Of a stretch of DNA of 57,492 nucleotides, positions 8,094-46,037 are shown piece by piece. Source of the DNA: a virus. The notes under the pieces are model-generated. The model was not told the origin of the DNA, did no database searches, and saw nothing but the letters and a program-made list of their open reading frames with translations. The stretch spans positions 1 through 57,492 of IMG/VR virus record IMGVR_UViG_3300045988_172985. The stretch is one strand, 5' to 3'. Made by a program: the position numbers and the translations under genes. Numbering within the stretch: position 1 is the first letter of the stretch; the number at the start of each line of letters is the position of its first letter.

Positions 8094-8126
8094 ATAAAAA
8101 GAAAAATCGCACCTTGAGATGCGATT
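8094..8126 (-). terminator. intrinsic terminator closing the ncRNA/tRNA unit
   Basis: Minus-strand AATCGCA-loop-TGCGATT hairpin followed by TTTTTCTTTTT. Confidence 0.7.
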
Positions 8127-8145: not shown

Positions 8146-8219
8146 TGGAGGTAGTAATAGGATTCGAACCTATGCTTGTGGTTTTGCAGACCACTGCCTT
8201 CCCGCTTGGCTATACTACC
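8146..8219 (-). tRNA. tRNA-Cys: tRNA-Cys (anticodon GCA), CCA encoded
   Basis: Hand-folded cloverleaf. Acceptor stem GGTAGTA/TACTACC. Anticodon arm GTGGT-CTGCAAA-ACCAC. T arm ATAGG-TTCGAAT-CCTAT. 3' end TCCA. Confidence 0.9.
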
Positions 8220-9052
8220 AAAAGGGGAAAACACCGTTTATTGAAAGGATTATTAAAAACTAAAAATGGAATTATTTATCATATTAGTATTAACGGTGTC
8301 TTCACTAGCAATTAAGTGAGTTTAGGAAAAATAAGAAAATATCAAAAACCTAAACTCTTATTTAGAAAGGGGCACTACTATCGTACTAGTTATTTGACAA
8401 TATTATATTACAGATGGTCCTCCCATTAATTCTTACTAGACATCTATTATTCGGTCACTGGGTAGTATTAGCCCAAAGCAAGTAGCGAACTATACTTCTC
8501 TAATACCATGTCAAAATCCCAAACCAGAATCCTTACTAGCAATTTTCACACACAGTTGGGTCACAATTTAATTCTGGAGCCAAATCGTGATAAATGCTCT
8601 GTTAATTGTTACTTTTTTACCATTTACTTCCTCGTGTGGTTTTGTGCGAAAATACCGAGTTCTAATCTTATAGGATATTGCTATCCATCAACCACACTAT
8701 TACTTATGGTATCTTATTTTTCCCTCACTCGTACCAATAGAGGTAGTACTAATAAGTTTTATCATTATCCTACGCTTGGACATGTTTTATAGTTGTAATC
8801 GATTAGGCTCGTACCTTATAGCATTCTAATAAGAACCACTATTTTCTCATTCCCTAGTTTCTAGGTCCCAGTACGGCATTTTACAATGCCGACAAACTCT
8901 ATCCTCCATAAGTCTGCACTAATAGATAAAAAGCATTGAGAAAATATCCTTACTATATTGTGTTATAGTCTTTCATAAGGTTCCTATATAATATTGTCAA
9001 ATAACTAGCACTAAGTAGCAATAATGCAATGCGGTAATCATATTCTTACCAC
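8220..9052 (-). ncRNA. large (~830 nt) highly structured noncoding RNA, co-transcribed with tRNA-Cys; ROOL/GOLLD-class candidate
   Basis: Has its own consensus promoter and no RBS-preceded ORF. Nested long-range helices: 8386-8408/8986-9008, 8442-8449/8920-8927, 8524-8530/8571-8577, 8634-8641/8690-8697, 8231-8238/8292-8299. Many local hairpins. Visibly less AT-rich than its flanks. Confidence 0.6.
8386..9008. repeat. perfect 23-bp inverted repeat arms (8386-8408 and 8986-9008) enclosing 577 bp
   Basis: CTAGTTATTTGACAATATTATAT at 8386-8408 is the exact reverse complement of 8986-9008. Confidence 0.9.
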
Positions 9053-9058
9053 AATTTA

Positions 9059-9087
9059 ATAATACCATATTATTTCATATTAGTCAA
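9059..9087 (-). promoter_or_regulatory. promoter of the large ncRNA / tRNA-Cys unit
   Basis: -35 TTGACT (9087-9082), 17-nt spacer ending TGG, -10 TATTAT (9064-9059). Confidence 0.7.
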
Positions 9088-20160: not shown

Positions 20161-20189
20161 TTGACTTTTTTAACAATAGGTGGTATTAT
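20161..20189 (+). promoter_or_regulatory. promoter of the small-acidic-protein array
   Basis: -35 TTGACT, 17-nt spacer ending TGG, -10 TATTAT. Confidence 0.65.
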
Positions 20190-20221
20190 TGAATTACCGA
20201 AAGGGAAGAAAGGATGATTTT

Positions 20222-44940: not shown

Positions 44941-45111
44941 TTAATCTTTATTATTTTTTACTGCTTGTGTTCCTAAAAAGAAACCTACGACAGTTGCTAA
45001 CACTGATTTCAATGTGTCATCTATTGGTATTTGCATAATAATACAATATGCAAATAGTAACATTACAGTCACCGTTATAAATGACTTTATATCATCCCAT
45101 GCTTTCTTCAA
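44941..45111 (-). CDS. holin (56 aa, 2 TM helices, TTG start)
   Basis: Hand-translated (M)KKAWDDIKSFITVTVMLLFAYCIIMQIPIDDTLKSVLATVVGFFLGTQAVKNNKD. GGAGGAG RBS 6 nt upstream. Lies directly upstream of the endolysin. Confidence 0.6.
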   Translation of the reverse strand: MKKAWDDIKSFITVTVMLLFAYCIIMQIPIDDTLKSVLATVVGFFLGTQAVKNNKD

Positions 45112-45144
45112 TTTTGTCTCCTCCTTCGTATTCTATCTCACAAT

Positions 45145-45173
45145 ATTATAACATATTTAATTTTTTTTGTAAA
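45145..45173 (-). promoter_or_regulatory. promoter of the lysis cassette
   Basis: -35 TTTACA (45173-45168), 17-nt spacer ending TGT, -10 TATAAT (45150-45145). Confidence 0.55.
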
Positions 45174-45178
45174 AGTAC

Positions 45179-45207
45179 TTGACTAATAAAGTCGAATATG
45201 GTATTAT
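45179..45207 (+). promoter_or_regulatory. promoter of the modular ncRNA
   Basis: -35 TTGACT (45179-45184), 17-nt spacer ending TGG, -10 TATTAT (45202-45207). Confidence 0.7.
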
Positions 45208-45214
45208 TAAATTG

Positions 45215-45248
45215 TCAAGAGGAGCAAAAGACAACTCCTGCCTCTTGA
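45215..45248 (+). ncRNA. module 0: 5'-terminal stem-loop
   Basis: TCAAGAGG (45215-22) pairs with CCTCTTGA (45241-48). Inner pairing AGGAG/CTCCT. Confidence 0.5.
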
Positions 45249-45280
45249 TTCAAACTATATTATTCTTTTAAATAAGATAT

Positions 45281-45444
45281 CGTTACCTTTTATAGGTAGC
45301 GTAGGATAAATGAGAGAGGGAGCAAAAGTACAATGCCTAGTAGAACCCTATTAGGAGGATTTTGAAGCCGGACTAGAGAAATCTCAATAGCGGAATGGAA
45401 TCGAAATTCATTTATCCTACGGTACTTATGAGAGTAAGTATCGG
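45281..45444 (+). ncRNA. module 1
   Basis: Hairpin 45281-45301 (loop TTTAT). A 13-bp helix, 45301-45313 with 45408-45420. Hairpin 45421-45442 (loop TGAGAG). Confidence 0.6.
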
Positions 45445-45470
45445 ACTTAAAAATATTAATTTCGTAATAA

Positions 45471-45602
45471 TGCTACTTTTTATAGGTAGCATAGAGTAGA
45501 TAATTATTATAACCTGTTCTATGAGGTTGACTATATAAATCAATAGAACAATGGGAAAATATAGTCCTTGTCTATTCTATGGTACTTATGAGAGTAAGTA
45601 CC
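45471..45602 (+). ncRNA. module 2
   Basis: Hairpin 45472-45490 (loop TTTAT). A 14-bp helix, 45490-45503 with 45568-45581. Inner hairpins 45511-45528 and 45529-45566. Hairpin 45581-45602 (loop TGAGAG). Confidence 0.6.
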
Positions 45603-45628
45603 TTGTTGATTCACTTAACTTTAACTTA

Positions 45629-45778
45629 GACACCTTTATAGGTGTCGCCGAGATTATGGTTGTTTATAATTTTACAAGTAACTATAAATAAATGACTGTT
45701 TGATTTCTTTTAAATAAAAAATTCCTTGAAATTGTTGTTTGAAGTTACCATAGTCTCGGTGATGCTTATGAAAGCATC
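45629..45778 (+). ncRNA. module 3
   Basis: Hairpin 45629-45646 (loop TTAT). A 13-bp helix, 45647-45659 with 45748-45760. Hairpin 45761-45778 (loop ATGA). Confidence 0.6.
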
Positions 45779-45807
45779 GAATCGACTACTAAATACATCA
45801 TTCTATT

Positions 45808-45845
45808 TAAAAAATCAGGATTTAATTATCCTGATTTTATTTTAT
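45808..45845. terminator. bidirectional intrinsic terminator
   Basis: A 10-bp stem AAATCAGGAT-ttaatt-ATCCTGATTT, flanked by an A-run on the left and a T-run on the right. Confidence 0.7.
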
Positions 45846-46037
45846 GTCTTCTTCTACATATAAGTCATTTAACTTGTTTTCATCAAAGTTATCTGCTAAA
45901 AAGATAATAGTTGCATAATAAGGTTTGTGTTCTTTTTCTGTTTCTGTAGCAGGTGTATACACATCATTAATATCTCTTATGTGTTTATTTTCATCTGCAA
46001 TTAATATCTTTTTCTTTCCATAATTTCTTATCTCCAT
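45837..46037 (-). CDS. hypothetical protein, last gene of the tail operon (66 aa)
   Basis: AGGAGG RBS. Confidence 0.45.
   Translation of the reverse strand: MEIRNYGKKKILIADENKHIRDINDVYTPATETEKEHKPYYATIIFLADNFDENKLNDLYVEEDIK

Follow-up and report, generated by a model that had tools for sequence, protein, structure and literature searches.

A promoter-to-terminator array of stalk-mounted, exchangeable RNA cassettes in one lineage of human-gut phages

The array unit and its setting

The DNA analysed here (the window) is a stretch of 57,492 nt of viral sequence, IMG/VR record IMGVR_UViG_3300045988_172985. Between its tail-fibre and lysis genes, at 45179-45845 on the plus strand, lies a non-coding RNA unit of ~630 nt, the array. 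Its parts, together with the divergent promoter beside it, are as follows.

45145-45173, minus strand: divergent holin/endolysin promoter, TTTACA, 17 nt, TATAAT with TG (11/12 match)
45179-45207, plus strand: array promoter, TTGACT, 17 nt, TGG TATTAT, an extended -10 promoter (10/12 match)
45214-45249, plus strand: 5' hairpin at the extreme 5' end of the transcript, 8 bp plus one G-U, 45215-45222 pairing with 45241-45248
45282-45442, plus strand: module 1 (fold z = -6.0), with hairpin a 45282-45300, stalk strands 45301-45313/45408-45420, cargo 45314-45407 (94 nt) and hairpin b 45421-45442
45443-45471, plus strand: linker between modules 1 and 2, A/U-rich, single-stranded, 29 nt
45472-45602, plus strand: module 2 (z = -6.7), with hairpin a 45472-45490, stalk strands 45491-45503/45568-45580, cargo 45504-45567 (64 nt) and hairpin b 45581-45602
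45603-45628, plus strand: linker between modules 2 and 3, 26 nt
45629-45778, plus strand: module 3 (z = -6.8), with hairpin a 45629-45646, stalk strands 45647-45659/45748-45760, cargo 45660-45747 (88 nt, A/U-rich) and hairpin b 45761-45778
45811-45845, plus strand: intrinsic terminator, 11-bp stem at 45811-45838 with a 6-nt loop, followed by a U-run and preceded by an A-run

The array promoter is conserved in the divergent locus L096 and stands back to back with the holin/endolysin promoter within the same accessory segment. The latter promoter is kept in every array-bearing locus and is missing from array-less relatives, in which the ATG start of the holin abuts the tail-fibre gene. The 5' hairpin occurs at the same place in all variants with differing sequences (leader types W, L2 and L096) and probably serves to stabilise the 5' end. 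Because an A-run precedes its stem, the terminator can act both ways; its sequence is conserved in all variants but L096, which carries another terminator. The next gene past it lies on the opposite strand, the array facing the 3' end of this convergent gene. A preliminary description of the locus had placed the extended -10 promoter and the 5'-terminal stem-loop (45215-45248) correctly, and its proposal of a bidirectional terminator holds for the order of A-run, stem and T-run, the stem being 11 bp rather than 10 bp.

The whole unit folds to -190.9 kcal/mol on the plus strand (z = -10.2), which is 37 kcal/mol better than the minus strand (-154.2 kcal/mol, z = -6.0), and none of 300 shuffles folds as well as the single modules. 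On the plus strand every wobble pair is G-U, an asymmetry that identifies this strand as the functional one, as had been argued from the first inspection. No ORF preceded by a ribosome binding site occurs in the region. The ORFs of 34-46 aa that can be read there run across module borders and are destroyed in variants with other cassette content; coding potential was rejected on these grounds. The signals, the strand bias of the fold and the lack of such ORFs are all consistent with the independently promoted, structured, non-coding plus-strand unit first described.

Stalks, cargos and cassette variation

Each module consists of a hairpin a, a closing helix around a cargo, and a hairpin b. The loops of hairpin a are UUUAU, UUUAU and UUAU in modules 1 to 3 and those of hairpin b UGAGAG, UGAGAG and AUGA. 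The closing helix has 13 Watson-Crick pairs in module 1 (45301-45313/45408-45420), 13 bp with 2 G-U in module 2 (14 bp counting C45490-G45581) and 13 bp with 2 G-U in module 3. These loops and helices agree with the preliminary description, as does the shared architecture. Its claim that the helix sequences are unrelated is correct for the closing helices and for module 3 only, since hairpins a and b are near-identical copies between modules 1 and 2. Likewise, a 26-nt linker was confirmed between modules 2 and 3, and the revised boundaries give 29 nt rather than 26 nt between modules 1 and 2.

A feature missed earlier is the complementarity between hairpin a (3' half and loop) and hairpin b (5' half and loop), by which the closing helix can be extended to a duplex of 26-31 bp in every module. 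In module 1 this gives a continuous 26-bp stalk (45288-45313 with 45408-45433), also seen as an inverted repeat (I1) with 27-nt arms that are 85% complementary. The extended stalk has ~31 pairs with one mismatch and one bulge in module 2 and 26 pairs in module 3 (45633-45659 with 45748-45774). The extended-duplex and three-helix forms are nearly isoenergetic (-52.2/-53.8, -44.5/-44.7 and -48.7/-45.8 kcal/mol for modules 1 to 3), and a compensatory C-G to U-A change in hairpin a of L098 favours the three-helix form. The extended duplex may thus not be the dominant form.

Comparison among modules and loci indicates that the stalk, not the RNA it encloses, is the conserved and selected part, its pairing being maintained through compensatory and G-U substitutions. 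In a set of 11 distinct module scaffolds, 99.3% of closing-helix cells are paired and 9 of the 13 pairs show double-sided changes, a 'covariation' that appears to come largely from a few paralogue/orthologue splits rather than many independent events, the sample being one narrow phage lineage in which most copies are >95% identical. For the a/b extension the paired share is 90.3% of cells, and pairing between a and b is retained where hairpin b is weak (b variants GGTGCCTATAAAGCAC and GGTGTCTATAAGGCAC). None of 500 shuffles matched the observed pairing or covariation, and slid registers pair at 36-51% only, which bears out the earlier suggestion that the helices covary. For module 3, RNAalifold on five orthologues including the divergent L096 chose the 26-bp stalk with no broken pair, whereas the enclosed cargo lacks conservation. 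Relative to module 3, L096 keeps all 26 stalk pairs, several by G-U single changes, around an unrelated cargo. Double changes in this stalk number three by hand comparison and two by RNAalifold, the difference arising because the innermost stalk pair falls in an alignment gap. All four point variants in scaffold helices preserve pairing (three are listed as paired, and the remaining one, on the 3' side of hairpin b, forms a U-G pair in the three-helix form), and the module 1 variants C45420T and A45436G retain theirs as G-U.

The cargos present a more varied picture. That of module 2 forms two hairpins, AACCU/AGGUU and GACUAUAU/AUAUAGUC, and the loop GUUCUAU of one is complementary to AUAGAAC in the other. 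Cargos 1, 2 and 4 are 98-100% conserved across variants. Two of the few substitutions seen disrupt predicted helices in cargos 2 and 3, and cargo 3 is very A/U-rich; certain cargos may amount to little beyond loops.

The three modules, taken at first as a fixed design, proved to be one state of a variable locus. Fifteen related loci show nine architectures with one to five cassettes each, and the only parts present in all 15 are the promoter with the 5' hairpin and the 3' terminator hairpin. One stalk (ATAGAGTAGATA/TATCTATTCTAT) carries three different cargos among the loci, and the stalk of module 2 carries another cargo in L067 and L075 and a tRNA-like one in L002/L003. The array is absent next to an identical 56-aa holin in L066, L071 and L072, and also from L009 and L010; these five array-less loci have the same holin or an endolysin whose N-terminal part is 99% identical. 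Exchange of cargos would most likely proceed by recombination within the repeated stalk sequences. With its own promoter and terminator, its position between conserved genes and its presence or absence among close relatives, the array is best read as an accessory, moron-like non-coding transcription unit of a gut siphophage.

Two cassette types in sister arrays are tRNA-like, with acceptor, D and T arms and no normal anticodon arm; the inner part of the stalk is the acceptor stem. Cassette T1 scores 44.5 and 43.4 bits against the tRNA model (RF00005), with a matched acceptor, G18 G19 in the D arm and UUCGAAU/UUCAAAU in the T arm. In place of the 17-nt anticodon arm it has 36 nt with no convincing 7-nt anticodon loop, from which T1 is judged to be tRNA-like rather than a decoding tRNA. 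The T arm of this cassette contains two compensatory pairs, and these changes together with the canonical D and T loops argue that at least some cargo is under selection. The three cargos of the window array gave no tRNA signal at E <= 10.

Relation to ROOL and other known RNA systems

The same phage carries a second RNA unit on the minus strand, 36 kb from the array.

8146-9087, minus strand: ROOL unit, comprising promoter and transcript start (9051-9087), 5' hairpin, ROOL, tRNA-Cys and terminator
8146-8219, minus strand: tRNA-Cys(GCA)
~8100-8125, minus strand: terminator of the ROOL unit

The ROOL RNA at 8393-9004 (RF03087) scores 137.7 bits (E = 3.4e-30; gathering score 99.1) and here stands on a ~32-bp stalk. 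A 37-nt promoter/transcript-start span with 29 specified bases occurs in exactly two near-identical copies in the window, one at the array and one preceding ROOL, with 0 expected by chance. The array is probably co-expressed with the ROOL RNA and the tRNA because this promoter is common to both. Neither the ROOL unit under a duplicated promoter nor the tRNA-like sister cassettes had entered the earlier picture of the locus. Base pairing between the array and ROOL was considered and dropped (whole-length duplex energy -211.5 against -207.6 +/- 9.3 for shuffles); a 12-nt identity between them (AGCGTAGGATAA, 45298-45309 and ROOL 8765-8776) is not significant (E = 1.7). A search for antisense targets elsewhere in the phage gave as sole candidate a 15-nt match in the same sense (E = 0.027), which was discarded.

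On present evidence from motif and protein searches, the array is confined to one lineage of human-gut phages, whose hosts are probably Erysipelotrichales-type. GenBank phages gave no DNA match to the array or to the 22 kb around it. IMG/VR was scanned with the hairpin-b 20-mer, a gapped a...b pattern and the terminator and promoter sequences, and the JGI metagenomes with the 20-mer; these scans recovered the array only in the same phage lineage; L005, L036 and L056-L061/L063 were set aside as chance matches in coding or unrelated DNA. In all, three public collections were searched by motif or protein, one of them with a single genome per species for 185,579 species, where an endolysin-based search found no array, the nearest match being a rabbit-gut 'Bacilli' MAG without one. 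Holin homologues of 64-87% identity have no array upstream, and the 66-aa neighbour and the DUF859 tail protein as queries retrieved the window itself or contig 170291 only. The closest cultured relative, Clostridium phage Maintenon (TerL 38.8% identical), has tRNAs; no ROOL lies at the syntenic site and the array was not found there.

The view that the array belongs to no known RNA class was put to a search of the whole window with the 4227 covariance models of Rfam 15, and it held: at gathering thresholds the array matches no family. For 45100-45900 at E <= 10 nothing scores better than miRNA-precursor and snoRNA models, which reach 15-21 bits, well short of their thresholds, and reflect long hairpins. 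The array gave no match to the ROOL or GOLLD models at E <= 10, and the true ROOL at 137.7 bits indicates that the search can detect ROOL in this genome. Ribozyme and 6S assignments were dropped for lack of an Rfam match. In the literature we found no description of such a stalk-mounted exchangeable RNA array.

The nearest parallels are the non-coding RNA islands of phages. ROOL (RF03087) and GOLLD (RF01998) are highly structured non-coding RNAs of Firmicutes phages and prophages; they often neighbour tRNAs or are transcribed together with them, and in some cases GOLLD has tRNAs inside it (PMC12286853, PMC5737381). The array resembles these islands in that its phage has ROOL and tRNA-Cys, its sister arrays hold tRNA-like cassettes and long stalks occur in both; it differs in being a string of independent cassettes with exchangeable content, not one large fold. 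It is akin to phage tRNA/ncRNA islands and possibly forms a new class.

Several other systems share part of this anatomy. In rRNA and tRNA operon precursors a leader-trailer duplex of >20 bp brackets the functional RNA, and cleavage of the stalk releases it. The array duplex likewise brackets RNA in a polycistronic precursor with predicted cleavage, but its stalk is repeated and portable, holds different small cargos and can refold into two flanking hairpins. Species 1 and 2 of the T4 tRNA region (rnaC/rnaD) are small stable RNAs sharing a precursor with tRNAs, their function is not known, and species 1 is an RNase III substrate; they have no likeness to the array in sequence or structure, no repeated scaffold and no cassette exchange, and their host is Gram-negative. 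ToxI/CptI arrays share with ours tandem structured units, one promoter and a terminator and are processed into monomers, and phages can carry such arrays, pseudo-ToxI among them, as anti-defence decoys. ToxI-type units are short (about 36-45 nt), near-identical repeats cut by the product of the adjacent toxin gene, and a ToxI-like array was rejected here on its units of 130-160 nt, unrelated interiors and the lack of a following gene on the same strand. By analogy only, the array recalls an integron in having one promoter and a variable number of interchangeable cassettes, each flanked by imperfect inverted repeats with strand-specific folding; unlike those of an integron its cargos are RNAs rather than ORFs, no integrase occurs in the scanned ORFs, and attC sites were rejected as the hairpins lack, by eye, the GTTRRRY R'/R'' core. 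Bacterial Y RNA (YrlA, RF02553), found in some phages, shows a similar modularity in that a long stem formed by its ends carries a tRNA-like domain. The YrlA model scored at chance level against a sister array (17.4 bits against 69, E = 0.86), and its topology differs because the array ends enter via the acceptor stem. With no Ro/TROVE in the Pfam matches, Y RNA was rejected.

The earlier exclusion of a tRNA, a CRISPR array, ToxI repeats and a riboswitch also stands for the window array. A CRISPR/TIGR guide array was rejected since the repeat families are limited to the a and b hairpins, spaced by 160-190 nt, and the CRISPR-DR match in the array is at chance level (17 bits against 35). A riboswitch or cis-regulatory leader was rejected since the array ends at a terminator facing the 3' end of the convergent gene. 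Pfam was run on 39 of the 67 ORFs of at least 100 aa and on the small flanking ORFs, and in these it found no transposase, integron integrase, Ro/TROVE, Cas-like or Nop-domain protein; among the 39 scanned ORFs there was also no RNA-related enzyme (ligase, Ro, RNase or CCA-adding enzyme).

Proposed processing and alternative explanations

The reading we favour, with a probability of roughly 0.5, is that the array is an accessory unit of stalk-mounted exchangeable cargos that is processed, putatively by RNase III, into trans-acting small RNAs. A strong sigma-A-type promoter would give one plus-strand RNA of ~630 nt, running from a protective 5' hairpin to the intrinsic terminator, as a string of cassettes with each cargo of 64-94 nt on a long stalk. 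The stalks would act as handles for processing and insulation. RNase III needs roughly two helical turns of duplex (at least 20-22 bp), and the early transcripts of phages T7 and SP82 have RNase III sites. The extended stalks, at 26 pairs in modules 1 and 3 and ~31 in module 2, are long enough for cleavage to be predicted, and the host enzyme would cut these long duplexes as in the stalks of rRNA precursors. Alternatively or in addition, single-strand nucleases may cut the A/U-rich linkers and halt at hairpins a and b. In this way the precursor would yield a number of stable small RNAs, about 90-150 nt long, or tRNA mimics, an outcome already suggested in the preliminary description, beside candidate decoy, sponge and scaffold roles, and still the best fit to the anatomy, with the cleavage itself predicted. 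Host factors would be the trans targets of the released RNAs, with tRNA- or RNA-handling enzymes or anti-phage nucleases as the likeliest conjecture.

Phage tRNA islands and ROOL/GOLLD are abundant, the latter as RNA-only cages, and their function is still not known. The same lineage keeps a second RNA-only unit under a ROOL-type promoter, with exchangeable stalk-mounted RNAs of which some imitate tRNA. The locus opens concrete tests: excision by RNase III, binding to ROOL or to tRNA-handling enzymes, and cassette content against host range. If the cassettes are anti-defence decoys, their presence, absence and swapping between gut samples would mark an RNA-based arms-race locus. The natural stalk is also of practical interest as a compact modular scaffold for several stable small RNAs per transcript.

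A more specific version is conceivable at low probability, in which the stalk is a new class of RNA platform, a portable 26-31 bp 'socket', and the swappable client RNAs, anticodon-less tRNA mimics among them, are expressed jointly with the ROOL nanocage RNA from the duplicated promoter and are partners or cargo of the nanocage, or decoys against defences that target tRNA or other RNA. Were it true, the cassettes would be the first candidate interaction partners for ROOL and an RNA-level counterpart of integron cassettes.

The stalk could also be the functional part in its own right, the array serving as a multivalent decoy or sponge for a host dsRNA-binding factor (RNase III, a defence sensor or a toxin) with the cargos as tolerated loops. 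Conservation of the stalk around replaced or unrelated cargo, its reiteration one to five times, the a-b pairing kept even with a weak hairpin b and the cargo helices left unsupported by the few substitutions observed would all fit such a role. We consider it unlikely because the tRNA-like cargos have canonical D and T loops and compensatory changes within themselves, and because cargos 1, 2 and 4 are nearly invariant; nor is any bacterial dsRNA sensor known for the presumed host.

The position of the array suggests a role in cis, as a transcriptional insulator or timer. Convergent transcription and the two-way terminator would block read-through from the tail operon, lysis would then depend on the holin promoter that arrived with the segment, and structure would merely stabilise an antisense RNA. 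The array does separate the holin from the last tail-fibre genes, runs on the opposite strand and has its promoter back to back with that of the holin; in array-less relatives the abutting holin must be co-transcribed with the tail-fibre gene. A terminator and a promoter would suffice for this, however, and one to five elaborate cassettes with compensatory changes, tRNA mimics and exchangeable cargo would be superfluous. Insulation is improbable as the main role and could be an additional effect.

Decay of a tRNA island, with the modules as functionless, drifting relics of phage tRNA genes whose leader and trailer pair, is quite improbable. It would account for the tRNA-like sister cassettes whose acceptor stem is the inner stalk, and for the frequent loss of cassettes and the phages without the unit. 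The window cargos, however, lack a tRNA signal at E <= 10, compensatory change has maintained the stalks instead of letting them erode, and every variant retains an intact promoter, 5' hairpin and terminator.

Very improbable is a DNA-level feature, such as MITE-, REP- or IS200/IS605-end-like palindromes, recombination sites or a single-strand origin with the RNA fold as by-product. In its favour, long imperfect inverted repeats surround variable centres, the breakpoints of cassette gain and loss fall in these repeats, and the terminator loop of L098 is inverted. Against it, the hairpin-b 20-mer is absent elsewhere in the window, hairpin-a-like 12-mers are no commoner there than chance, motif and protein searches of the three collections recovered the array only in this phage lineage, and the Pfam matches of the scanned ORFs include no transposase or integron integrase. 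The orientation also agrees with promoter and terminator, the wobble pairs are of the G-T type when read on the plus strand and not on the minus strand, and the plus-strand fold is better by 37 kcal/mol.

The array unit and its stalks

All protein genes flanking 45179-45845 lie on the minus strand, and an ORF check of the intervening 630 nt agreed with the preliminary description in finding no reading frame preceded by an RBS. The structural elements listed there were all found in place, and a promoter scan identified two near-consensus extended -10 promoters standing back to back.

Features of the array and its neighbourhood
48187-46047, minus: tail-fibre genes
46037-45837, minus: gene of 66 aa
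45811-45838: terminator hairpin with an 11-bp stem, an A-run upstream and a T-run downstream
45179-45207, plus: array promoter, TTGACT-17-TATTAT (promoter scan)
45173-45145, minus: holin-facing promoter, TTTACA-17-TATAAT (promoter scan)
45111-44941, minus: 56-aa holin-like gene with a TTG start
44928-44128, minus: M15/CW_7 endolysin

Judged from sequence, the case for plus-strand transcription signals in the array is firm. Folding energy is -190.9 kcal/mol (z = -10.2) for the plus strand against -154.2 kcal/mol (z = -6.0) for the minus strand, with single modules at z of about -6 to -7 each. Hairpin b, which follows the closing helix of each module, is approximately the reverse complement of hairpin a, which precedes it, loops included, and the bases that differ are transitions giving G-U pairs. 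As a result, hairpin a can pair through its loop and 3′ half with the loop and 5′ half of hairpin b. This pairing, missed in the preliminary description, extends the 13-bp closing helix to a stalk of 26-27 bp, or ~31 bp in module 2. In every module the three-helix form and the long-stalk form have almost the same energy (-52.2/-53.8, -44.5/-44.7 and -48.7/-45.8 kcal/mol).

Several lines of comparison indicate that the stalks are maintained, with counts that all rest on few independent events because the lineage is narrow. In an alignment of 11 distinct paralogous scaffolds, with the cargo (the RNA enclosed by the stalk) replaced by GAAA, 99.3% of closing-helix cells are paired and 9 of the 13 pairs change on both sides, while 90.3% of cells in the a/b extension are paired. 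The observed pairing or covariation was reached by none of 500 shuffles, and sliding the register lowered pairing to 36-51%. Among five sequences of the M3 (third module) type, RNAalifold chose the 26-bp long stalk with no broken pair; these include the related locus L096, with its endolysin only 76% identical, its cargo unrelated and its stalk pairs still intact. Set beside M3 by hand, L096 shows double changes at three closing-helix pairs (A-U to G-C, U-G to A-U and G-C to A-U) and at one pair of hairpin a (C-G to U-A). The RNAalifold tally is limited to the first two of these helix pairs, since an alignment gap covers the innermost one. Among near-identical copies, point variants such as C45420T, A45436G, G45647A and the changes in the M2 and M3 stalks of L074 keep plus-strand pairing as G-U or A-U and would be A-C mismatches on the minus strand. 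The retention of helices through compensatory change, first proposed from the three modules, thus holds for the closing helix and stalk across scaffolds and orthologues, and by this comparative evidence the stalks are strand-specific and selected. The predicted hairpin form, too, finds support in a single compensatory change, from C-G to U-A, in hairpin a of L098.

Cassette exchange and tRNA-like cargos

GenBank phages contained nothing resembling the array. Motif scans and contig look-ups by the same holin or related endolysins recovered the unit at 15 loci, every one of them in a single phage lineage, and the array loci with informative sample names come from gut or human-gut metagenomes. 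The window corresponds to ENA ERZ28575849 scaffold_365. Common to every array locus are only the promoter with the 5′ hairpin and the 3′ terminator hairpin, the latter differing in sequence in L096.

Cassette architectures (M1-M3, modules of the window; M4 and tRNA-like 1 and 2, cassettes of sister arrays)
M1-M2-M3: window, L035
M1-M4-M3: L067, L075
M1-M2-M4-M3: L068, L069, L073, L074
M1-M2-[180 nt]-M4-M3: contig 170291
M2-M4-M3: L097
One M3-like module: L096
M2 + tRNA-like 1 + insert + tRNA-like 2: L002/L037, L003
tRNA-like 1 + tRNA-like 2: L098
tRNA-like 2 only: L099

One stalk sequence (ATAGAGTAGATA.../...TATCTATTCTAT) bears three different cargos, and variant breakpoints fall within repeated stalk and hairpin sequences, which points to recombination between scaffolds. 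The Rfam comparison suggested in the preliminary description matched none of the window's three cargos to a family. Two of the few cargo substitutions break helices predicted by energy minimisation, and how cargos 2 and 3 fold internally is therefore only a prediction. Cargo 2 has two hairpins whose loops show perfect 7-nt complementarity, in which a G-C becomes G-U in one variant.

One sister-array cassette, tRNA-like 1, scores 44.5 and 43.4 bits against the tRNA model. Its acceptor stem of 7 bp is the inner part of the stalk, its D arm has GG, its T arm has UUCGAAU or UUCAAAU with two compensatory pairs between L002 and L003/L098, and 36 nt stand where the 17-nt anticodon arm would be. These features make it a mimic of tRNA rather than a decoding tRNA. 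The second tRNA-like cassette has a 14-bp acceptor-like stem with a canonical T arm directly after it; its 18-bit match to tRNA-Sec is at chance level. Across the compared loci, then, cargo is clearly exchangeable and some cassettes have the features of tRNA mimics.

The unit is absent from L066, L071 and L072 despite an identical holin protein, and from L009 and L010, whose endolysin N-terminal part is 99% identical. Presence and absence beside the same holin or a 99% identical endolysin N-terminal part therefore mark it as an optional insertion, and by its gene context it is a moron (an accessory transcription unit) that carried in its own holin promoter.

Where the array is present, the holin gene is preceded by this near-consensus promoter (45145-45173, minus) and a strong AGGAGG site and starts with TTG, whereas in the array-less phages the same 56-aa holin begins with an ATG directly abutting the tail-fibre stop; acquisition of the unit therefore rewired lysis-gene transcription. 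Upstream of the holin, L071 and L072 retain an apparent scar of the terminator 3′ half and U-tail (ATCC TTTTATTTTAT), adjoining a gene of 71 aa there and 66 aa in the window, suggesting that deletion of the unit produced at least some of the array-less phages. An HNH gene also lies upstream of the holin in these two phages, and an HNH/NUMOD4 homing-endonuclease gene lies between holin and endolysin in L097 (1977-2504) and L098 (1977-2504), which makes the tail-lysis junction a hotspot of mobile insertion. The array of contig 170291 (L004 ~60-240) has between cassettes 2 and 4 a ~180-nt extra segment with three small hairpins, a weak terminator-like hairpin and a T-run, which other variants are without. 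The L098 terminator (~1210-1250) has the stem of window 45811-45838 with its 6-nt loop reverse-complemented (AATTAA vs TTAATT), suggesting that the palindromic terminator was inverted or exchanged between strands.

A ROOL unit with the same promoter

A near-copy of the array promoter and transcript start, noticed while the window's single tRNA was being checked, lies at 9087-9051 (minus) and precedes ~870 nt of non-coding RNA. The two copies agree at 29/29 specified positions of a 37-nt pattern (TTGACTAAT, 8 free bases, ATATGGTATTATTAAATTGT) that has 2 matches in the window, with 0 expected by chance. The array unit is accessory, and its predicted promoter is common to the ROOL unit.

Features of the ROOL unit
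8393-9004, minus: ROOL RNA (RF03087), unannotated; 137.7 bits vs a gathering score of 99.1, E = 3.4e-30
8146-8219, minus: tRNA-Cys(GCA), after ROOL and before a terminator

The gathering scan of the whole window did not return ROOL, which was detected when the 1.1-kb stretch was searched alone. It sits on a leader-trailer closing stalk of ~32 bp. ROOL and tRNA lie upstream of the large terminase gene in 3/3 other array-bearing phages that could be checked, and more distant relatives also have both (175-193 bits). In L104 (TerL 65% identical) a seven-tRNA island stands directly upstream of ROOL (193 bits; 79-784 and 1277-1881), so the linkage of ROOL with tRNAs ahead of the terminase gene is a conserved trait of this phage group. 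The ROOL and GOLLD RNAs, whose function is unknown, occur in phages and prophages near tRNA islands, and form RNA-only cages suggested as possible holders of tRNAs (PMC12286853, PMC5737381).

The ~170 nt between ROOL and tRNA-Cys (8220-8392, minus) contain two further helices, GAGUUUAGG/CCUAAACUC and, around ~60 nt, ACACCGUU/AAACGGUGU, and may be another small stalk-mounted element of the ROOL transcript. The 12-nt AGCGUAGGAUAA occurs in the same sense at the hairpin a/stalk junction of module 1 (45298-45309, plus) and in a variable hairpin of ROOL (8765-8776, minus), so that ~10 bp could form between ROOL and the 3′ stalk strand of module 1; by itself the sharing is not significant (E = 1.7 against the window). 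A third sequence like the -10/start region of both promoters (TGGTATTATTGAATTA, 2 mismatches) stands at 20181-20196 (plus), where plus-strand early or replication genes begin.

Proposed processing and known systems

We infer that the array RNA would be a polycistronic precursor whose stalks are probably cut by RNase III, setting the cargos free. RNase III needs a minimum duplex length; cleavage is probable because the array stalks exceed it and resemble those of rRNA precursors. Alternatively, cuts might fall in the A/U-rich linkers, and hairpins a and b would then cap each module against exonucleases. With either site of cleavage in the proposed precursor, the 5′ hairpin and terminator would shield the ends of the whole RNA, and candidate targets of the freed RNAs are tRNA-handling enzymes, anti-phage RNA nucleases or ROOL itself. 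The stalks could instead be dsRNA decoys, or the unit a cis-acting insulator of the lysis genes, a DNA-level repeat element or a decaying tRNA island; none of the four accounts as well as a processed precursor for the conservation of the stalks together with selection on the tRNA-like cargos.

The array unit belongs to no Rfam family and lacks the features that define ToxI arrays, CRISPR/TIGR arrays, riboswitches, integron cassettes and Y RNAs. In its proposed way of working its closest likeness is to RNase III-processed multi-RNA precursors, and by context it belongs with phage tRNA/ncRNA islands. New in the array is a portable stalk scaffold with cassette exchange; we see only a modest chance that it represents a genuinely new platform tied to the function of ROOL. 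Among cultured phages, the nearest by large terminase (38.8% identity) is one that infects [Clostridium] innocuum.
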